Positions 5,132-57,091 of a stretch of 64,000 nucleotides of DNA are shown here, piece after piece (position 1 is the first letter of the stretch; each line of letters starts with the position of its first letter). A model generated the notes under the pieces. It saw only the letters and a program-made list of their open reading frames with translations. It was not told where the DNA came from and made no database searches. Source of the DNA: Candidatus Moraniibacteriota bacterium (lineage in GTDB: Bacteria > Patescibacteriota > Minisyncoccia > Moranbacterales > UBA2206); assembly GCA_030645735.1 (NCBI GenBank), contig JAUSNP010000006.1, forward strand, positions 260,824 through 324,823, read 5' to 3'. The position numbers and the translations under genes were made by a program.

Positions 5132-5548
5132 GGATTTTCAAGGCAAATCTATAAGCCGGATTTTGTTGAAAGAAATCATTTATCTAGGCCAAACATTGCT
5201 GATTGGCTCTTGCAGTACCCGCCAATACGAAACACTATAAACTTCATCGAAACACTATCATGAAATTCACAATGCTTCGCATTGGCGTACGACCTTGCAT
5301 CTAGGTAAGGATTTAGCCGTTTCACTCCTCGACTTCACTCAGAGCAAGCCCTAAGTTTATTTCGAAGACTATTCCGCTTTTATACGGAATCTGCAATCCT
5401 TTCGAATTACAGCGTCTCTGCTCGCACCTCGTAGGTTACCCTAGACGGGTATTACCCGCTACCGATCCATTGCAAAGCAATGGTTGATGTCCGGACTTTC
5501 CTCCTCGACTTTGACGTCGAGGCGATTTCTCAATTTACCTTGAAAATT
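5132..5548 (-). ncRNA. rnpB: RNase P RNA, bacterial type
   Basis: Minus-strand reading contains the P4 5' strand GAGGAAAGTCCGGAC, the element GGCCTAGATAAATGATT (E. coli: GGCCUAGAUGAAUGACU), and the P4 3' strand ACAAAATCCGGCTTATAG. A P1 helix pairs tttcaaggtaaat with atttgccttgaaa at the two ends. Confidence 0.8.
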
Positions 5549-14833: not shown

Positions 14834-14845
14834 AATATGATTCTT

Positions 14846-14950
14846 GTCATTCCGGCCTTGAGCCGGAATCTACTTATTGTAATTGCGAATTTAAATTTAA
14901 TTCAATGAAACACAGGGCAGATCCCGGGTCAAGCCCGGGATGACATTTTT
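14846..14950. mobile_element. MITE-like element with about 24-bp terminal inverted repeats, copy 1
   Basis: TGTCATTCCGGCCTTGAGCCGGAAT ... ATCCCGGGTCAAGCCCGGGATGACA. Each terminus is itself a hairpin. About 80% identical to the reverse complement of 56225-56320. Confidence 0.6.
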
Positions 14951-45969: not shown

Positions 45970-46040
45970 CACGGGTGGAAGGAGTCGAACCCTCACCAAA
46001 GGTTTTGGAGACCTCCGTTCTACCGCTAAACTACACCCGC
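45970..46040 (-). tRNA. tRNA-Trp (anticodon CCA)
   Basis: Cloverleaf: acceptor GCGGGTG/CACCCGT, anticodon loop CTCCAAA, T-loop TTCGACT, discriminator G. Confidence 0.75.
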
Positions 46041-46167
46041 CCGCCTCATTTGCCAATGAAATGAAAAATACCTACTCTCCGATTTTCATTAAGCTATAAA
46101 AATCATATTCGTAAAAATAATCTCACTAGCAAATGTGGCGGGCACGCCCAAATGGACATACCAAAGA

Positions 46168-46332
46168 TTATTTCGCTTCTTTGTGCACTGTGTGAACCTT
46201 GCATTTCTTGCAATGTTTTTTCATTTCCAACTTTTCTTTCAACATCTTCTTGTTACGAGTTGTGAAATAGTTAGTTGATTTGCAGACTTCGCATTTCATC
46301 TTCGCTAGATTGTCGTTGCCTTTTTTTGCCAT
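46168..46332 (-). CDS. rpmG: 50S ribosomal protein L33
   Basis: MAKKGNDNLAKMKCEVCKSTNYFTTRNKK...KKHCKKCKVHTVHKEAK (54 aa from the ATG at 46332). The listed ORF is over-extended at its 5' end. Confidence 0.85.
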   Translation of the reverse strand: MAKKGNDNLAKMKCEVCKSTNYFTTRNKKMLKEKLEMKKHCKKCKVHTVHKEAK

Positions 46333-46428
46333 AATATTTTCGTGGAACGTGGAACGTGGAACGTAAATCATTGATAGGATATACGTTTCGCGTTATGCGT
46401 TTTGCGTTATATGATTTACAAATTATTA

Positions 46429-46501
46429 ATTTCGCTTGAGCCGTTGAGCAGAATCGAACTGCTGACCTCATCCCTACCAAGGATGTGCTCTACCAACTGA
46501 G
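46429..46501 (-). tRNA. tRNA-Thr (anticodon GGT)
   Basis: GCCGTTGTAGCTCAGTTGGTAGAGCACATCCTTGGTAGGGATGAGG...TTCGATTCTGCTCAACGGCT. Confidence 0.8.
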
Positions 46502-46626
46502 CTACAACGGCAACTTCATTACAATAACCAAATTCCAAGATACAAACATCAAACAAATTTCAAAATTCAACATGGATATTTTTTGGAATTTGTTATTTGT
46601 TTTTTTGGTTTTTGTCACGAAGTGAC

Positions 46627-46712
46627 TGGTGGGCAGAGAGGGAGTCGAACCCCCGTAGACCGAAGTCGACAGATTTACAGTCTGTTGTAATTGACCACTC
46701 TACCATCTGCCC
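46627..46712 (-). tRNA. tRNA-Tyr (anticodon GTA), long variable arm, CCA encoded
   Basis: GGGCAGATGGTAGAGTGGTCAATTACAACAGACTGTAAATCTGT...GGGGGTTCGACTCCCTCTCTGCCCACCA. Confidence 0.8.
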
Positions 46713-46728
46713 ATTTTCAACAACCCAG

Positions 46729-46800
46729 AGCCGCCTTTCGGATTCGAACCGAAAACCTACTGTTTACAAAACAGTTGCTCTACCGTTGAGCTAAGGCGGC
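46729..46800 (-). tRNA. tRNA-Thr (anticodon TGT)
   Basis: GCCGCCTTAGCTCAACGGTAGAGCAACTGTTTTGTAAACAGTAGGTTTTCGGTTCGAATCCGAAAGGCGGCT. Confidence 0.75.
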
Positions 46801-50294: not shown

Positions 50295-50549
50295 ATGAAA
50301 AAGAAGATCCACCCAGAGTACCATGAAGACGCGAAAATCACTTGCGCTTGTGGCAATATTATTGAAACGGGCTCAGTAGTCAAGGAAATGAAGGTTGACA
50401 TTTGCAGCGCTTGTCATCCTTTCTACACTGGCAAGAAGAAATCACTCGACACAACTGGTCGCGTTGATCGCTTCAAGAAGCTGGCTGAAAAAGCTGAAGC
50501 TAAAAAAATTGTCAAGAAAACAACTCGAGTTTCAAAAAACAAGAAATAA
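50295..50549 (+). CDS. rpmE: 50S ribosomal protein L31
   Basis: [27 protein letters not shown]...[13 protein letters not shown]. Confidence 0.9.
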
Positions 50550-50574
50550 TCTCACTTCGATATCAAAAAACTCA

Positions 50575-50820
50575 TCCGCAAGGGTGAGTTTTTTGATTAC
50601 ACGTCATTTTTATTTCATAAAAATTACGGTTTGTCCATTTTCTTTGGCAGCAAAGAAAGTGGACGAAAAGAAACTGCTGCCCAGACTCGTGCTGTCTAAA
50701 TTTCTAGCGTACTCGCTAAAATTCCAATAAGAACGCTAAAAGGAAAACTAGTATGTAATTTCTTAACGCTCGTGCGCTGAAATTTAGAAACGCACTTCGT
50801 TATGGGCGAAAGTTTTTTTT
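50575..50820 (-). repeat. Dispersed ~250-bp intergenic repeat, copy B, inverted relative to copy A
   Basis: The reverse complement aligns at about 75% to 55290-55550 (GTGCGTTTCTAAATT...GAGCGTTAAGAAATT...AATTTTAGYGAG...TTTAGACAGCAC...CTTTGCTGCCAAAGAAAATGGAC). It includes a terminal terminator hairpin. Confidence 0.6.
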
Positions 50821-51724
50821 AAATTTTAAATATTAATTCGGCCGTCATTCCCTGTTTACGTTTGCGGTGCTTGATGGCACCTAGGAAGTGCGATTCTTTT
50901 TCAGTGAAACCAACTGAGACAATTAGATTTTGCCATCGTTCTATTGATTTATATTGCATTGTCCAAGGCATGTAGGTGTTTTGTAGATTCATCAACCAAT
51001 CATTGATGAACAAAAATTTTATTTTGTCTTCTGGGGACAACTGCAAGAAATCAGCGGTCACCTCTGACATTTGCAAATTGAATTTGGCCAAATATTTTTC
51101 GATTTCTTCCACTTCACAATTTGTCTCCGGAAAAGATTCTTCAAAAACGATTAGTTTCCCATCTGCCTTCAAAACCCGCCTGAGTTCTGCAAAAATCCCC
51201 TGCGACTCCTGCTCACTTTTCAAATGATGCAAAACCAGTTTGATTGTCACCAGATCCACTGACGCATCTACAATTTCACTCAGACTTCGGTGAAATTCAA
51301 TGCGGGTGTCCAGCCCATTCAAAACCGGCTGGCTCTTCAAATCAATTCCAATCAATTTTTTGATCTCCAAATTTTTCTCAGCCATGTTTTTCAAAAACGC
51401 CAATTTGCCACAACCGAAATCCAACATCGTTTCCACACCCCGCAAATCCTCTTCAATCATTTCCAAAAACATATCCCCTGGCTTGCCCAAGTCCAAGCTG
51501 TCATCGCGAAACTCTTTCAACTTTTTTTGATACAACTTGTTGATTTCTCGATTCGATCCAAGATTTTTGATTTCCGCAAAAAACGCTTCCACAAATTTTT
51601 CTGGGTCAATCAGATTTTCATGATTGGCAACCCAATGTTTTTTGAGCACAGCCAAAATATCCTTGGATGCCAAAATATCCAGAGGGTTTTTCAGTATTTC
51701 AGAATCAACAATATTCTTTAGCAT
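50819..51724 (-). CDS. Class I SAM-dependent methyltransferase
   Basis: 301 aa, motif I MLDFGCGKLAF. Confidence 0.6.
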   Translation of the reverse strand: MLKNIVDSEILKNPLDILASKDILAVLKKHWVANHENLIDPEKFVEAFFAEIKNLGSNREINKLYQKKLKEFRDDSLDLGKPGDMFLEMIEEDLRGVETMLDFGCGKLAFLKNMAEKNLEIKKLIGIDLKSQPVLNGLDTRIEFHRSLSEIVDASVDLVTIKLVLHHLKSEQESQGIFAELRRVLKADGKLIVFEESFPETNCEVEEIEKYLAKFNLQMSEVTADFLQLSPEDKIKFLFINDWLMNLQNTYMPWTMQYKSIERWQNLIVSVGFTEKESHFLGAIKHRKRKQGMTAELIFKI

Positions 51725-51733
51725 AAATCAGTT

Positions 51734-52288
51734 CTATTTTTTAGTTGCCAAGACATCCATATCACTAGCATCATGAACTGCTTCAATTATAGACTGCAAT
51801 TTATTTCTTATTTCATTCTCGTCACCAGTCCTTGGTATATTTGGCACAACTCCTGGCCTACCAGAAAGCGACCCGTCATTATCTCTGAAGAATCTAAATA
51901 ACAATTTTGCCGACCAACCAATTTCCATTATCTTATCAAAATGTTCTCTTTCGTGTTCAACAAGTTCCTGAGCTAACTCCTTATTATGCAATAGATCTGC
52001 TAGAAATTCCCTCATTTCATCCAAGCCACTAAGTTCAATCTCCCCTGGTTTTAAAATTCCAAATTGCGTTGAGTCATTAGCATTAAATTCTTGTAAGCTT
52101 ATGCGTCCATGAATAAAATTATTTACCGACATAGCAGATTCTTTATCTTCTGCTTCAACCTCAATGAGTTGTCGCGCCTCTTTCTTTGCTAAAAGAGTTC
52201 TAGCTACTAAATTTTGCAAATCCTCCTTTTCTACAAATGCATCTTTCTTACTTGGCTTATCATACATATTCACATGTGGTATTTCCAT
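51734..52288 (-). CDS. Hypothetical protein (184 aa)
   Basis: Intact ORF immediately upstream of the methyltransferase and co-directional with it. No recognised domain. Confidence 0.45.
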   Translation of the reverse strand: MEIPHVNMYDKPSKKDAFVEKEDLQNLVARTLLAKKEARQLIEVEAEDKESAMSVNNFIHGRISLQEFNANDSTQFGILKPGEIELSGLDEMREFLADLLHNKELAQELVEHEREHFDKIMEIGWSAKLLFRFFRDNDGSLSGRPGVVPNIPRTGDENEIRNKLQSIIEAVHDASDMDVLATKK

Positions 52289-52416
52289 AAAAGTAGTTAT
52301 TAAATAAATTAGATATTTTCACAAACCAATGTAATCTTTTTGACTTTATACCCTTAATAAAGTATAATCTACTAAGGTTTGAATGTAAATCAGACTATTT
52401 TAAAATAACAAAAAAC

Positions 52417-53478
52417 ATGAATCCGATTGCACTGGAAGTCAAAAAAGAATATGCCGAAATCGAAGCTCAGCTCAACTCGCCTGAGTTGCTTTCTGATATG
52501 CCAAAAATGGCCAAACTTGGCAAACGCCAAGCGGAGTTAGCTGACACGATGCGCCTCATTCAAGAAATGGAAACGATTGAAAAGAATATGAAAGACAATG
52601 CTGGCCTCATCAATGCAGATGAAGATGCTGAGATGAAACAAATGGCTATGGATGAAAACGTTCAACTGGCGCAAAGAAAAGAGCAAGTCGAAAAAGACTT
52701 GGAAGAATTGCTCATTCCCAAAGATCCCAACGATGACAAGAATATCATCGTGGAAATCCGTGCCGGTGCGGGTGGCGATGAATCAGCCTTGTTTTCGGCC
52801 GAACTTTTTCGCATGTATTCACGCTTGGCTGAAAAAAATGGTTGGCGTGTGGTTTTGCTCAACTCCAATGTCAATGGCGTAGGCGGATATAAGGAAGTCA
52901 CTTTTGAAATCAATGGTTTCGGTGTCTATGGCAAAATGAAATTTGAATCCGGCGTACATCGTGTGCAAAGAATCCCAGAAACAGAAAAGAATGGTCGCGT
53001 TCACACCTCCACTTCCACGGTAGCTGTTTTGCCTGAAGCGGAAGAAATGGATTTCAAATTGGATGACAACGACATTCGCGTAGACACTTTCTGTTCATCT
53101 GGTCCGGGCGGTCAATCAGTCAACACCACCAAGAGCGCTGTGCGCTTGACTCACATTCCCACAGGCCTGATTGTTTCCTGCCAAGATGAAAAATCACAAA
53201 TCAAGAACAAAGAAAAGGCCATGAAAGTTTTGCGTTCTCGCCTCTTGCAATTGGAAGAAGATCGTCGCGCCAAAGAATTGGGCGACGCGCGACGCGATCA
53301 AATTGGCACCGGTGACCGCAGTGAAAAAATCAGAACTTATAACTTCCCGCAAGACCGCATCACCGACCACCGCATCAAACAAAACTGGAGCAACATTCAT
53401 GGTGTCATGGAAGGCAATTTGGATGAAATTATCAAAGCCTTGGCTGAAGAAGAAAGAAAACTAAAAATGCAACAATAA
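52417..53478 (+). CDS. prfA: Peptide chain release factor 1
   Basis: GGQ motif ([11 protein letters not shown]) and an RF1-type tripeptide region, RVQRIPETE (PET in place of PAT/PVT). Confidence 0.85.
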
Positions 53479-53576
53479 AAATAAAAAAAATAATCACTTT
53501 TGAGTTCTTATTTTTTATATACACAAATTCTAGGATTTAATTTAAAATTCTGGAAACAACATTGGGGAGATGAAAA

Positions 53577-53879
53577 ATGTCAGGAGGAAAGAAAAAGCTG
53601 GTTACACCTATTTGGGGAAATCCTTTTGAGGTCGACATATCCAATGAGGCCTGTGGCAAATTCGAATTTGTACACAACGATATTACGCAACATTTTGTGC
53701 ACGGTCAAGTCTTTAAACATCCACAACACGGAACTGGAGTTGTGGAGGGAGTTGCATCCTCAGTAGGCGGACCAGATCCTGGGCCTAATGTCCTTTGGAT
53801 AATCTTTGAAGAGGATGTGAAAAAATGTGGGAAATTGGTCGTATCCTTCTGCGCCGAAATCAAGGAAGTTTCTAAATGA
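53577..53879 (+). CDS. Hypothetical protein (100 aa)
   Basis: Strong Shine-Dalgarno GGGGAGATG. A downstream nested terminator hairpin plus T-run at 53895-53940. Confidence 0.45.
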   Translation: MSGGKKKLVTPIWGNPFEVDISNEACGKFEFVHNDITQHFVHGQVFKHPQHGTGVVEGVASSVGGPDPGPNVLWIIFEEDVKKCGKLVVSFCAEIKEVSK

Positions 53880-53948
53880 AGCTTTACCGCTTCAAGAACC
53901 GCCAAGAACCTAAATGGTTCCAGGCGGTTTTTTATTTAAAAATAGATA

Positions 53949-54290
53949 TCAGATATTCATCAACACCACACCCACCATTGCCAAGCTAATTCCAACCCCC
54001 TGTGTCAGGGAGATTTTTTCACCAAAGATAAGCAGGCCAGATAGGATAATTGTCAGTGAATAGAAAACGATATGGATGTTGCCCGCAATGCTCAAGTCCC
54101 AGTGACGTCGAAAGACAAAAATGAAAAAAGAAACTTGCACCAAAATCAGAAGCAGAATCACTGCCATCCATGGGCTTTTGAGCGCTGACCAGAAACTGCC
54201 AGTCAAAGCAATTCTTTTGATCAATGAATCAGCAATACCCACCGACACGCCAGCCATAATCACTGCCAATAATTGTAGAATATTCGGCAT
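53949..54290 (-). CDS. Small 4-TM membrane protein (SMR/EamA-like small transporter of the drug/metabolite transporter superfamily)
   Basis: 113 aa with four hydrophobic helices. Confidence 0.5.
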   Translation of the reverse strand: MPNILQLLAVIMAGVSVGIADSLIKRIALTGSFWSALKSPWMAVILLLILVQVSFFIFVFRRHWDLSIAGNIHIVFYSLTIILSGLLIFGEKISLTQGVGISLAMVGVVLMNI

Positions 54291-54363
54291 AAATTTGTCT
54301 GTTACACGAAGTTATGATATTGTTTAGCCTGTAATTTACTATGCTCATAGTAACATAAATCAG

Positions 54364-55272
54364 ATGCAAATCGAAACTATTGGTGACCTGCAAAAAGAAT
54401 ACTTTGGCAAAATCGATCATCTCGATTTGGATTTGATTGTGGCGCATTCAATCAAAAAAACTCGGGAATTCGTGATGTCACATCCCGAACACAAGCCCAC
54501 AGGCGCCCAATTGGCCAAAATCAAGACATTTGCCCAGCGAAGGGCCAAACACGAGCCCTTGGCCTATATTTTGGGTCACAAAGAGTTCTTCGGCCTGAAT
54601 TTCAAAGTTTCGCCGGATACCCTGATTCCCCGACCGGAAACGGAGTTGCTCGTTGAACTCGCAATGCAAAACGTGGAACGTGAAACACAAAACGCAAAAT
54701 CGTTACACGATATGCGTTACACGATATGTGACATCGGCACTGGCAGTGGGAATATAATAATCTCAGTTGCAAAAACAATGACCATTGACCGATTACCGAT
54801 GATCAACTTTTTTGCTATCGACATTTCCAAAGAGGCTTTGAAGATTGCCAAACAAAATGCCAAGATCAACGCAATTTCTGACAAAATAAAATTTATCCAT
54901 GGAAATCTATTAGATCCAATTATAAAAAATCCTACCAACTACCAACTACCAACTACCAACTTAGTTATTCTGGCTAATCTTCCCTACCTCTCTCAAGAGA
55001 TTTATTCCGCCACCCTGCCCAATGTCAAAAAGTTTGAACCCAAGTCCGCCCTCTGGAGCGCCAAAGAAGGTTTGGATCATTATGAAAAATTATTACAACA
55101 AATTGCAGAGCTAAAATCGTGTTATATATTTCATGTTTCATGTTTCATGGAAATTAGCCCCGAACAAAAAACCAAACTTCCCAAAATTATCAAAAAGCAT
55201 CTTCCTCAAGCAAAAACACAATTCCACAAAGACTTAGCTGGCAAGTGGAGAGTTTGTGCAATTAAAGTTTAA
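54364..55272 (+). CDS. prmC: Release factor glutamine N5-methyltransferase (HemK)
   Basis: LAYILGHKEFFGLNFKV, RPETE, DIGTGSGNI, and NLPY in place of NPPY. It contains a 7-bp x4 tandem repeat at 54932-54959. Confidence 0.75.
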   Translation: MQIETIGDLQKEYFGKIDHLDLDLIVAHSIKKTREFVMSHPEHKPTGAQLAKIKTFAQRRAKHEPLAYILGHKEFFGLNFKVSPDTLIPRPETELLVELAMQNVERETQNAKSLHDMRYTICDIGTGSGNIIISVAKTMTIDRLPMINFFAIDISKEALKIAKQNAKINAISDKIKFIHGNLLDPIIKNPTNYQLPTTNLVILANLPYLSQEIYSATLPNVKKFEPKSALWSAKEGLDHYEKLLQQIAELKSCYIFHVSCFMEISPEQKTKLPKIIKKHLPQAKTQFHKDLAGKWRVCAIKV

Positions 55273-55289
55273 AATTTAAAAAAATAAAT

Positions 55290-55575
55290 CCGCGCCTTGG
55301 CGTTAGTGCGTTTCTAAATTCCAGATTGTGAGCGTTAAGAAATTTTTCGCTGCTCCTCTTAGCGGAAAGTCGTCCCTAAAATTTTAGTGAGCAATCTGAG
55401 AATTTAGACAGCACAAGCCGGCGCCGGCGGTTTCTTTTTGCCACTTTCTTTGCCGCCAAAGAAAATGGCGAACTGTTTTCTTTGCTGCCAAAGAAAATGG
55501 ACACTCTGTTCTTTTGCTGCCAAAAGAAAGTTAGAGCTGAAAATCAAAAACCCGCATGTTAGCGGGTTTTTGATA
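55290..55575 (+). repeat. Dispersed ~250-bp intergenic repeat, copy A
   Basis: Conserved 5' block CCGCGCCTTGGCGTTAGTGCGTTTCTAAATT. Three tandem hairpins with CNGC loops (TTTCTTTGCCGCCAAAGAAA, TTTTCTTTGCTGCCAAAGAAAA, TTCTTTTGCTGCCAAAAGAAAG). A terminal terminator AAAAACCCGCATGTTAGCGGGTTTTT. Confidence 0.6.
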
Positions 55576-55671
55576 TGCTTTTAAGTTAATCATTCAGGAA
55601 CACTTATTCTGCCGGTACCAGCAAGATACTTGTTCTAGTAGATTAGTTAAAAGTTGATAGTTTATCTAAGA

Positions 55672-55827
55672 CTATTTCTTTTTCTTTTTTGCTACAACTT
55701 TCTTTTTAGCTACTTTCTTTACTGCCTTTTTAGCTACTTTTTTTACAGCTTTTTTTGCAACTTTTTTTACTGCCTTTTTTACAGCTTTTTTTGCAACTTT
55801 TTTTACTGCTTTCTTTTTTGCTGCCAT
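55672..55827 (-). CDS. Lys/Ala-rich histone H1-like 'KKAV' repeat DNA-binding protein (51 aa); not in the supplied ORF track
   Basis: Manual minus-strand translation from the ATG at 55825-55827: MAAKKKAVKKVAKKAVKKAVKKVAKKAVKKVAKKAVKKVAKKKVVAKKKKK, ending at TAG. Shine-Dalgarno AAGGAAGGTGA lies 8 nt upstream. Confidence 0.6.
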   Translation of the reverse strand: MAAKKKAVKKVAKKAVKKAVKKVAKKAVKKVAKKAVKKVAKKKVVAKKKKK

Positions 55828-56224
55828 GTGGGTTTCACCTTCCTTTCTATTTTTAGTTTTATTTTTATACTTTTTTGTTTCGACCTTTTTATTTCGTCAG
55901 GAATATTTTTTAAAATTAAAAAATATTTCTCAACTACATAAATTATATAACATTTAAATTTATTTGCAATAGCAAAAAGTTATCCACAGGGCAAATTTTT
56001 TAACTTTCATTTTTTATTTTCTATTTTAAAAAATAATTTATTTTGCTTTTTGAAAAACATTGGGTGATTCTAAGTTAAAAGTTAAAAAATTAAAATTACA
56101 AAATCCAAATCACAAATCACAAACAAATCACAAATCTCAAAATTTTAAATAAAATCTAAATTTAAAAATTTAAAAAAACTTTCCGCGCCTTGCGTAGTGC
56201 GTTTCTAAATTTAATTGTCATCCC

Positions 56225-56320
56225 AGGCTTGACCTGGGATCTTCCTTACAATTCATCCAATAAATTAAATTTCGCGATTACAGTGAGTAGATTCCGGCTC
56301 AAGGCCGGAATGACAGACTT
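56225..56320. mobile_element. MITE-like element, copy 2 (inverse orientation), adjacent to a partial copy of the 250-bp repeat
   Basis: TGTCATCCCAGGCTTGACCTGGGAT ... ATTCCGGCTCAAGGCCGGAATGACA. The reverse complement aligns to 14846-14950. It is preceded by CCGCGCCTTGCGTAGTGCGTTTCTAAATTT at 56185-56225. Confidence 0.6.
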
Positions 56321-56383
56321 AAAAACATTTTAATAGAGAAAGTTAGCCCCGATATTATGCCCAAAATGCCATTTTTTGTCTAG

Positions 56384-56412
56384 TTGACGCACTGCTCAGA
56401 TGCGTTTAGAAT
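56384..56412 (+). promoter_or_regulatory. Sigma70-like promoter candidate
   Basis: TTGACG, 17-nt spacer, TAGAAT, about 100 nt upstream of the ATG at 56513. Confidence 0.4.
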
Positions 56413-56512
56413 TTATAGACAGAGACAATTTGGTCGGAACTACCCTAAAAAGGTAGATAAGCTTCAACGAAAGCCCCTTAACAATTAATATAGAAAGGAA
56501 GGTGAAACAAAC

Positions 56513-57091
56513 ATGGAAGAAGAAATCAAAACTGAAGAAGAAATGGATCAAGAAATTTCAACCAAGCAATGGCTTCAAGACAACCTTCGCATCATCATTA
56601 GCATCCTAATCGTGGTTGCTATCGCTGGCGGAATCTATTCATACTCAAACCGAGGAGAAGATTCAGCTAAGAATGATCAGGAAGTTGCTCAACAAGAAGA
56701 ATCAACTGGCGATAATTCAGAAGTTACCATAGACAAAATTTCTGAAACTACCCCAGCAGCTAAAACTGAAACTGTTGCATCTAGCCAAGAAACTGAAAAA
56801 TCTTTTATTGAAAAGGCTGGAAAGGGAGATGGCTCAACCGTTCTTGCTCGCAGAGCTCTAGCTAATTTTCTAGAAAAGAACCAAGACTCAGCCCTAACAG
56901 CAGAACACAAAATCTATATTGAGGACTATCTGCGCAAGAATGTTTCCCACAAAGGAAGCGTGCACATTGGAACTTCGATAGAATTCTCTAAAGACCTAAT
57001 TCAAGATGCGATTGCAAAATCGAAGAATCTGAACGAAAAACAATTACAGAATTTGCACAAGTATGCCGTTAGAGTTCCCTCTCTAGCATAG
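56513..57091 (+). CDS. Hypothetical membrane-anchored protein (192 aa)
   Basis: Acidic N-terminus, one transmembrane helix. Its ribosome-binding context ATAGAAAGGAAGGTGAAAC is nearly identical to that of the KKAV gene. Confidence 0.5.
   Translation: MEEEIKTEEEMDQEISTKQWLQDNLRIIISILIVVAIAGGIYSYSNRGEDSAKNDQEVAQQEESTGDNSEVTIDKISETTPAAKTETVASSQETEKSFIEKAGKGDGSTVLARRALANFLEKNQDSALTAEHKIYIEDYLRKNVSHKGSVHIGTSIEFSKDLIQDAIAKSKNLNEKQLQNLHKYAVRVPSLA

Follow-up and report, generated by a model that had tools for sequence, protein, structure and literature searches.

Several kinds of structured intergenic repeats and miniature inverted-repeat transposable elements (MITEs) are known in bacteria, for example, BOX and RUP in pneumococci, ERIC/IRU in enterobacteria, the Correia elements in Neisseria, and the REP/BIME/REPIN doublets. 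H-type pseudoknots with major-groove triples are found in telomerase RNA and in the SAM-II and preQ1-II riboswitches. Furthermore, in the omega RNA of TnpB/IscB and the single guide RNA (sgRNA) of Cas12, a pseudoknot or triplex adjoins the 3′ guide; we considered these RNAs only as a lead. The triple helices of MALAT1/MENβ and of viral or transposon ENEs are treated in parts of two reviews (PMC13541005 and PMC7583470), and the prokaryotic RNA triplexes named in part of a 2026 review are short and belong to riboswitches and group II introns. In this study, we describe a repeat from a 64-kb stretch of DNA from a Candidatus Moraniibacteriota bacterium (64,000 nucleotides of contig JAUSNP010000006.1, positions 260,824 to 324,823; hereafter, the window). 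The window contains two full copies, A and B, and a fragment of a third, C. A and B are solo copies of a structured element of ~190 nt that had not been described before; it is multi-copy, lineage-specific and found in Moranbacteria-type bacteria of the candidate phyla radiation (CPR). Their membership in this family and the conserved fold are established. We propose, with about even confidence, that the element is a structured single-strand module, most likely an RNA with a 3′ triplex paperclip, which is nuclease-resistant or stable and resides in a multiplying, recombining repeat.

The element works like the BOX, ERIC, Correia and REPIN families but is a member of none of them. Like BOX, RUP, ERIC, Correia and REPIN elements, it is multi-copy, non-coding and intergenic, and often lies at gene 3′ ends or inside operons. 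As in BOX and REPINs, there are imperfect palindromes, a variable number of tandem hairpins (compare boxB) and inverted doublets. Intergenic repeats of this kind are co-transcribed with neighbouring genes, as would be expected for A and B, and their copies recombine. However, we found no sequence relation to BOX, ERIC, Correia or REPIN elements, and the unit of the new family, which we call the arm, has a closing helix, a conserved internal loop and a mirror tract. REP/BIME/REPIN units are palindromes of 20-40 nt, whereas the arm is a complex structure of ~190 nt; inverted doublets occur in both, and the arm does not belong to that family. No partner transposase of the RAYT or IS type was found within 1.5 kb of the arms at 131 loci. 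The element is small, non-coding and multi-copy, as MITEs are. In contrast, solo arms have no terminal inverted repeats, and no target-site duplication was found at the boundaries of near-identical copies. Moreover, the covariation of the arm is far stronger than expected for decaying MITEs, and, unlike MITE families, the new family has retained many of its copies at orthologous positions in genomes that are very small.

A first-pass annotation of the window, made from its letters alone, had proposed a dispersed family of diverged copies. This family is real: A and B are full members at the positions originally given, and there are more copies elsewhere. To define the arm, we used a 26-copy alignment, its RNAalifold consensus and a covariance model (R1). 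A scan of GTDB species genomes with the 5′ block and its pairing partner (GTGCGTTTCTAAATT-N62-92-AATTTAGA) returned 28 loci, 27 of which are true copies holding 28 matches from ~9 metagenome-assembled genomes (MAGs). All hosts are MAGs of Candidatus Moranbacteria/Moraniibacteriota or unclassified Parcubacteria; the largest number in a single MAG is nine copies. A metagenome scan with the conserved internal-loop pattern gave at least 120 loci. Model R1 recovered 42 and 117 arms from the genome and metagenome loci, respectively (159 arms). Thus, the copy-number check suggested in the first-pass annotation came out in favor of a family. The suggested comparison with Rfam matched no family: Rfam 15 at gathering score found only RNase P and four tRNAs in the whole window, and its E-value mode gave only chance-level matches in positions 50400-56600 and in two further family loci, L032 and L038 (E ≥ 0.29, scores far below gathering). 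We rejected a viral origin because all 23 IMG/VR matches to the conserved 16-mer AGTGCGTTTCTAAATT are chance matches of at most 23 nt. No conserved reading frame was found in the arms. The longest stop-free stretches split 65 versus 48 by frame relative to a fixed anchor, and their peptides (20-46 aa) have no conserved start; thus, the arm does not look like a small protein gene. In the literature on repeats, MITEs or triple helices of Moranbacteria or CPR bacteria, we found nothing relevant.

The core arm comprises, in order, an A-rich leader, a rod of ~135 nt, a G/C segment, a pyrimidine tract and a hairpin (H1). The leader precedes nearly all arms of the family. The rod is closed by a long-range helix, in which GCRCC pairs with GGYGC ~125 nt downstream; the R:Y pair covaries (11 G-C and 10 A-U in the RNAalifold consensus). 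This helix is followed by the helices GUGC/GCAC and UCUAAAUUY/RAAUUUAGA and then by a variable helix. The first and last conserved blocks of the first-pass annotation correspond to GUGC/GCAC and UCUAAAUUY/RAAUUUAGA, and its middle blocks to a nearly invariant internal loop, GAGCGUUAAGAAAUU / AAUUUUAGCGA (GAGCG/AGCGA). Tandem G.A pairs are possible in this loop. However, on inspection copy A lacks the 3-nt bulge of a kink-turn, and we rejected that assignment. The apical stem differs entirely in sequence between subtypes, and its pairing is always kept (UUUUUA/UAAAAA, UAUCA/UGAUA, UUCCC/GGGAA, CUCUCA/UGAGAG and UUGCUGGU/ACCAGCAA). In 110 distinct metagenome copies, 92.6% of the cells are paired, compared with 70.7% after shuffling and 35-56% with slid partners. 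Changes on both sides were observed in 42 of 46 pairs, and none of 500 shuffles reached the observed values; it should be mentioned that the alignment was fitted to the model and that the shuffle controls ignore the relatedness of the copies. The effect is far beyond what these two caveats could account for. Thus, covariance modelling and the many further copies bear out the earlier opinion that the repeat is not neutral debris.

Two elements of the original definition did not hold for the family, namely, the three tandem CNGC-loop hairpins and the terminator. By strict count, three such hairpins occur in one of 136 arms, which is copy A itself. H1 is the sole U/A hairpin kept family-wide, and it carries a conserved C.A mismatch. 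The tails beyond H1 are variable, often with a different A/U hairpin. Terminators are absent or different in other copies and belong to the neighbouring genes. We also rejected a CRISPR or TIGR-like array as an explanation of the tandem hairpins: the two sides of each hairpin are conserved and complementary to one another, the "spacers" measure only ~10 nt, and no copy but A has the tandem arrangement. The closing helix, the mirror pyrimidine tract, the pseudoknot-type complementarity and a head-to-head inverted paralogue, described below, go beyond the first-pass annotation.

The two strands of the arm are not equivalent. In the rod, 195 G.U pairs were counted versus 51 A.C mismatches; in the genome set outside H1, the numbers were 60 and 5. 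The strand read from head to tail folds better than its complement in 120 of 142 arms (mean, -6 kcal/mol). These results suggest that the selected form is one strand, read from head to tail, of either RNA or single-stranded DNA. This strand is most probably RNA.

The pyrimidine tract 5′ of H1 is the mirror of the U-rich strand of this hairpin, and hence the parallel complement of its purine strand; it is neither a direct nor an inverted copy of the hairpin strands. For example, the following tracts and purine strands were observed in individual arms: UUUCUUUUU with AAAGAAAA, UUUUCUUU with AAAAGAAA, UUCUUUUU with AAGAAAAA, UUCCUUUU with AAGGAAAA, UUUCUUUCU with AAAGAAAG, UUUUCUUUUCUU with AAAAGAAAAG, and UUUUCUUUCCUC with AAAAGAAAGGUG. 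The mirror relation could be followed through at least 10 sequence variants of tract and purine strand, such as U3CU5/A3GA4, U4CU3/A4GA3, U2CU5/A2GA5, U2C2U4/A2G2A4 and U3CU3C/A3GA3G. The longest parallel U.A/C.G run has a mean of 7.70, versus 6.78 ± 0.055 when tracts and hairpins are randomly re-paired. For the antiparallel Watson-Crick run, the values are 6.96 and, after permutation, 6.77 ± 0.067. In 122 arms, the parallel run is longer than the antiparallel one in 84 and shorter in 7; an antiparallel Watson-Crick duplex between tract and purine strand is thus the poorer fit, and we rejected it. We know of no mutational process that makes mirror repeats. Therefore, the simplest reading of the mirror relation is selection for Hoogsteen U.A-U and C+.G-C triples. 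The linker between tract and hairpin is 0-3 nt, which would suit a fold-back third strand whose 3′ end reaches the base of the hairpin. The mirror covariation thus predicts a U.A-U/C+.G-C helix of 8-10 triples.

In many subfamilies, there is Watson-Crick complementarity between the loop of H1 and the 4-6 nt that immediately precede the tract. At least five distinct pairs of complementary sequences were found, and the variants include GGCGG:CCGC, GGCAG:CUGC, GGCGC:GCGC, GGCACA:UGUGCC, CUUGAA:UUCAAG and GAAA:UUUC. The overall loop complementarity score is 3.47 versus 3.19 ± 0.086 in the control.

The predicted 3′ domain resembles the MALAT1/ENE and pseudoknot triplexes in principle, not in topology. 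As in MALAT1 and the ENEs, the predicted U.A-U stack is interrupted by C+.G-C, and the strand order is a Hoogsteen U-rich strand, then a Watson-Crick U-rich strand and, 3′ of both, an A-rich strand encoded in the genome. The strands co-vary so as to keep U.A-U/C+.G-C triples, as is expected for triplexes of that type. A position at the transcript 3′ end is expected for the window copies, and ENE-like elements also occur in the RNAs of transposable elements. However, the paperclip is contiguous (tract, 0-3 nt and hairpin in 40-45 nt) and its host is a bacterium. Furthermore, there is no U-rich internal loop flanked by stems that clamps a 3′ A-rich tail, and the domain is in this respect not an ENE. 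The likeness to H-type pseudoknots is that a segment 5′ of the tract can pair with the hairpin loop and that a U-rich strand would follow the major groove in parallel with the purine strand. In contrast to those pseudoknots, the other-side loops are of zero length, loop pairing is not present in all subfamilies, the predicted triplex is 2-3 times longer, and no ligand or riboswitch context is apparent. Omega RNA and sgRNA are likewise structured RNAs of ~150-250 nt from repeated or mobile elements, with a pseudoknot or triplex near the 3′ end. However, no tnpB, iscB or cas gene stands beside the arms at 131 loci, there is no HEARO match, and the head-to-head pairs described below do not fit IS200/IS605 ends.

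Arms are intergenic in every case examined and occur in both orientations. In 16 of the 29 genome copies, a diverged paralogue lies 20-45 nt upstream, inverted head-to-head, so that the pair is an imperfect palindrome of ~450 bp. The R1 score of this upstream "L arm" is 55-100 bits, and many of its differences are compensated; for instance, AUACCAAG/CUUGGUAU replaces GUGC/GCAC. The same head-to-head pairs are present in the metagenome loci, together with two tail-to-tail pairs. At the tail side of 103 solo arms, the adjacent gene end is a 3′ end in 50 cases and a 5′ end in 23; at the head side, the corresponding numbers are 28 and 40. We clustered 779 neighbouring open reading frames (ORFs) from 131 loci and found no recurrent mobile-element gene within 1.5 kb of the arms, whole genomes lying outside this search. 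The recurrent neighbours are housekeeping genes (uvrA, a comEC-like gene, prmC and a methyltransferase gene), which indicates orthologous sites. In the case of prmC, the adjacent arms of three loci (L035, L088 and L134) have the same orientation and share 71-75% nucleotide identity, compared with 58-71% for the coding DNA.

The arms also behave like mobile or recombining DNA. Composites of ~400 bp are ~97% identical (by eye) between unrelated loci of one MAG and between species; in the pair that has homologous flanks (L050/L033), the flanking coding DNA is ~75% identical (by eye). Apical stems and tails have been swapped between copies at orthologous loci. We compared the window (positions 50550-50830) with Moranbacteria GW2011_GWA2_39_41 (locus L031, positions 2056-2320), whose proteins are 90-97% identical to those of the window over rpsB-tsf-rpmE. 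Synteny stops 15 nt past the rpmE stop codon, the orientation of the arm relative to rpmE is inverted between the two, and the rpmE terminators also differ. We excluded a simple A/B inversion on logical grounds, since recombination between inverted repeats leaves the outer-flank junction unchanged. In other relatives, the rpmE/methyltransferase intergenic site holds an arm in the opposite orientation or an arm with the remnant of a partner. At this site, L071 (500-880) contains a hairpin remnant of one arm and a full inverted L-type arm, whose pyrimidine tract is interrupted by an additional GC hairpin. L157 (1460-2040) has an extra 51-aa ORF and an arm composed of an R-type rod and an L-type 3′ domain. 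In L031, a candidate T-box leader and then a candidate thrS were recognized by eye behind the arm.

A terminator-like hairpin with a T-run is located ~15 nt before 19% of the solo heads, in the same direction. On the tail side, the value is 16%. Because the two values are much alike, we rejected terminators as a preferred target site. The reverse complement of the arm head (a small G+C hairpin or the rod base, then a U-run) itself resembles an intrinsic terminator. Either observation could bear on the origin of the head-to-head pairs, or on the termination of genes that enter from the tail.

In the window, the 16-mer AGTGCGTTTCTAAATT occurs at exactly three positions, 55305 (+), 50781 (-) and 56196 (+), and AATTTAGACAGCAC exactly twice. 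The hairpin TTTCTTTGCNGCCAAAGAAA is found at 55445, 55477 and 50639 (-), where 0.2 matches are expected by chance. As arms of an inverted repeat, A and B are 76-85% complementary, and both fold better than shuffled sequences on either strand (z = -7 to -9). A filters-off covariance-model search of the 64-kb window found no full arm besides A and B. Gene identities were checked with Pfam: PrmC (54364-55272), ribosomal protein L31 (rpmE, 50295-50549), RF-1 (prfA, 52417-53478) and, for the 301-aa product of 50819-51724 (-), a class-I S-adenosylmethionine-dependent methyltransferase. Copy B indeed lies 3′ of rpmE in inverse orientation, as first described; yet it is also sense-oriented, directly 3′ of the gene for the 301-aa methyltransferase. 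The homology of A and B begins at or within the stop codons of prmC and of this gene. Strong divergent promoters are predicted at 52340-52389 and would drive both operons outward into the arms: the prfA...prmC operon toward copy A and the operon of the 184-aa product and the 301-aa methyltransferase toward copy B. Each operon has, in order, its last stop codon, the arm and an intrinsic terminator. Because A and B are sense-oriented between the last stop codon and the terminator, both are expected in 3′ untranslated regions (UTRs). The proposed structured 3′-UTR element is thus a fair description of A and B; for the family, a sense 3′-UTR position is not obligatory. The sense orientation of A and B is a minority configuration, and the other sense cases are next to prmC (L035, L088 and L134), rpmE (L031) and infB-rbfA (L040). 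The features are summarized in Table 1.

Table 1. Positions of the arms, their parts and adjoining host features in the window
Feature	Position	Strand	Remarks
Copy A, A/T-rich head leader TAAAATTTAAAAAAATAAATCC	55270..55291	+	First TAA is the prmC stop; 92% match to copy B leader
Copy A, full core arm	55284..55477	+	Covariance-model match, 194 bits
Copy A, 5′ rod domain	55292..55424	+	Helices 1-9; compensatory changes in nearly all pairs
Copy A, long-range helix closing the rod	GCGCC 55292-55296 / GGCGC 55420-55424	+	
Copy A, inner helices of the rod: GUGC/GCAC, UCUAAAUUC/GAAUUUAGA, CAGAUUG/CAAUCUG		+	
Copy A, conserved loop of the rod	GAGCGUUAAGAAAUU 55330-55344 / AAUUUUAGUGA 55380-55390	+	Variable apical stem also inside the rod
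Copy A, GGCGG	55426..55430	+	Complementary to hairpin loop CCGC(C) 55453-55457; pseudoknot-type pairing
Copy A, pyrimidine tract UUUCUUUUU	55431..55439	+	Parallel mirror of purine strand AAAGAAAA 55458-55465; predicted Hoogsteen third strand
Copy A, hairpin H1 GCCACUUUCUUUG-CCGC-CAAAGAAAAUGGC	55440..55469	+	Helix 10; 12/12 pairs with compensatory changes
Copy A, two extra tandem H1-like hairpins	55476-55497, 55509-55528	+	Local amplification, not family-defining
Intrinsic terminator of the prfA-prmC operon	55543..55582	+	Bidirectional, also serves the convergent 51-aa ORF; host feature
Copy B, full core arm	50626..50815	-	178 bits; head abuts the methyltransferase stop 50819-50821
Copy B, 3′ domain	50633..50680	-	GCAGCAG 50674-50680; tract UUUCUUUUC 50665-50673
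Copy B, hairpin H1 GUCCACUUUCUUUG-CUGC-CAAAGAAAAUGGAC	50633-50664	-	
Bidirectional terminator of rpmE (+) and the methyltransferase operon (-)	50564..50595	both	Host feature; differs from the L031 rpmE terminator
Copy C, head fragment of ~55 nt	56157..56212	+	Leader, small hairpin and AGTGCGTTTCTAAATT; cut by an inserted other repeat
Unrelated repeat of ~100 bp with terminal hairpins TGTCATCC...GGAATGACA	56213..56316		Inserted in copy C

Copy B contains one CNGC-type hairpin and an A/U hairpin. The truncated third copy reported near 56185 is present, but only as the head fragment C, and the model search found no match past this fragment. A second copy of the unrelated ~100-bp repeat that cuts it is located at 14845-14945, with the bounding hairpins TGTCATTCCGGCCTTGAGCCGGAATC ... 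GATCCCGGGTCAAGCCCGGGATGACA; the two copies are mutually inverted and 91% identical over 55 nt. The 51-aa ORF convergent with prmC (55672-55827, -) is rich in Lys, Ala and Val and is built of tandem 12-nt repeats (KKAVKKVAKK...); Pfam gave no match for it. Short repeats are also present within the prmC coding sequence (55126-55150 and 54658-54728): TTTCATG three times, runs of CGTGGAA/CGTGAAA, and CGTTACACGATATG twice. The prmC orthologue of L035 has GTTACGA four times at the same relative place, and CGTGGAA-like repeats adjoin the tRNA cluster of the window (46341-46411). The RNAs that Rfam found in the window are a bacterial class A RNase P RNA (5136-5541, -; 123 bits) and this four-tRNA cluster (45970-46800, -).

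Based on these results, we propose the following model. The arm would fold as a single strand into the ~135-nt rod, which is closed by the long-range helix and carries the conserved GAGCG/AGCGA loop and an exchangeable apical stem. The short G/C segment after the rod would be complementary to the loop of the next hairpin. The pyrimidine tract, the U-rich strand, the loop and the A-rich strand would then form a fold-back paperclip, in which the tract lies in the major groove of the hairpin and makes 8-10 U.A-U and C+.G-C triples, so that the A-rich 3′ strand is sequestered in the triplex. A and B would be transcribed as the 3′ UTRs of their two operons. There, the arm may be a compact 3′ module that resists nucleases, or a stable RNA may derive from the 3′ UTR. 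The family would also act as a selfish recombining repeat, as near-identical copies at unrelated loci, inverted pairs, orientation flips and synteny breaks suggest. A stronger version, namely, that the 3′ domain is a genuine bacterial RNA triplex of 8-12 consecutive triples on a self-propagating structured RNA element of ultra-small CPR bacteria, and thus the compact equivalent of the stabilisers at MALAT1/ENE 3′ ends, is put forward only tentatively.

Several observations, in addition to the caveats on the covariation controls, weigh against this model. Single-stranded DNA is also compatible with the strand asymmetry, and the conserved C.A mismatch of H1 would be a G.U pair on the opposite strand. 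The mirror symmetry equally permits H-DNA or a purine-motif triplex on the opposite strand. The complementarity to the H1 loop is absent in several subfamilies, and the connecting loops of 0-1 nt make full loop pairing together with a closed H1 sterically impossible, so that such pairing would require the top of H1 to open; because the two cannot coexist, we treat the pseudoknot as partial or alternative. Among solo arms between co-directional genes, 23 are antisense and 9 are sense. For most copies, a role as the sense 3′ UTR of the gene upstream is therefore excluded. We found no promoter or terminator that is conserved as a part of the element.

The main rival explanation is a selfish non-autonomous DNA element (MITE-like or foldback), in which the fold provides single-stranded-DNA mobilisation signals, the enzyme is encoded elsewhere and transcription is incidental. 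The multiple, strictly intergenic copies in both orientations and the head-to-head pairs, which are ~450-bp palindromes, are what such an element would leave behind. So are the ~97% identical copies at unrelated loci or in different species with much more diverged flanks, the exchange of apical stems and tails at orthologous loci, and the synteny breaks and orientation flips at the arm. DNA hairpins also tolerate G.T pairs. The solo arms that lie ~15 nt past a terminator-like site belong here as well: the reverse complement of the head is itself such a site, which could explain the head-to-head pairs. However, where boundaries are well defined, we saw neither a target-site duplication nor short terminal inverted repeats. 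Terminators are about as frequent on the tail side as on the head side (16% versus 19%), and no transposase or other recurrent mobile gene lies within 1.5 kb at the 131 loci. Moreover, arms are kept at orthologous prmC, methyltransferase and uvrA sites in relatives with 50-68% protein identity, with coding-like nucleotide identity; such retention is unexpected for junk in genomes of ~1 Mb. We consider a purely selfish DNA element rather unlikely. The purine strand that the hairpin gives in cis is not needed for H-DNA, and the long-range helix and the loop complementarity require a single strand; a signal in duplex DNA, in which mirror-repeat H-DNA and cruciform palindromes serve recombination, replication pausing or nucleoid proteins, is hard to reconcile with these features and with the strand asymmetry (G.U over A.C, 4:1; sense strand better in 120 of 142). 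Such a signal would account for the homopyrimidine mirror repeat formed by the tract and the U-rich hairpin strand, which is a classic H-DNA motif, for the long palindromes of the pairs and for the coincidence of rearrangement breakpoints with the arm. We regard it as very unlikely.

The arm might also be an independent small RNA (sRNA) gene, transcribed from a promoter of its own in the A/T-rich flank of the head, as the first-pass annotation suggested in part. The head-to-head pairs would then be divergent sRNA genes, and the RNA would be trans-acting, for example, a sponge or scaffold for proteins, or would work via its variable apical stem. The sense strand is under structural selection, yet arms are often convergent with the upstream gene, and an RNA would in those cases need its own promoter. 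TAAAAT-type hexamers are present in the head leaders of A and C and in the pair spacers, and the hypervariable, exchangeable apical stem suits a trans-acting RNA. However, the promoter-like matches are weak (9/12) and no commoner than expected in A/T-rich DNA, and the regions upstream of 95 solo heads showed no conserved -35/-10. Many heads follow a terminator by 10-25 nt or have a divergent start codon at a distance of 25-45 nt, so that no promoter would fit; the pair spacers are just 20-45 nt, and there is no conserved terminator in the tail. The claim of an independent sRNA gene thus found no backing in a conserved promoter, and we hold it to be quite unlikely. The neutral remains of a segmental duplication within the genome would fit a window that has only two full copies with ~75% identity. 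This explanation is refuted: the proteins upstream of A and B are unrelated, the copies number from dozens to hundreds across many genomes, and compensatory changes are pervasive. The single-stranded, probably RNA, module within a recombining repeat is the explanation that we prefer.

CPR genomes are ~1 Mb and have little non-coding DNA, yet in its host genomes this family takes up numerous sites, each of 200-450 bp, some of which are shared in position by distant relatives. The more than 150 diverse copies provide a deep alignment, in which a complex fold is combined with a rare parallel-mirror covariation that points to a long triple helix. Such long triple-helix motifs have so far been documented mainly in eukaryotic and viral RNAs. 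If the RNA triplex is true, it would exceed in length every other natural RNA triplex of prokaryotes and represent a new device for RNA stability or RNA mobility; it would also offer a small portable 3′-end stabiliser and a new test case for triplex prediction. If the arm is instead a DNA signal, it would betray an as yet unknown mechanism by which DNA is mobilised in an uncultured phylum. Either way, RNA and repeat libraries can take up the model, which will improve the annotation of Moranbacteria genomes.

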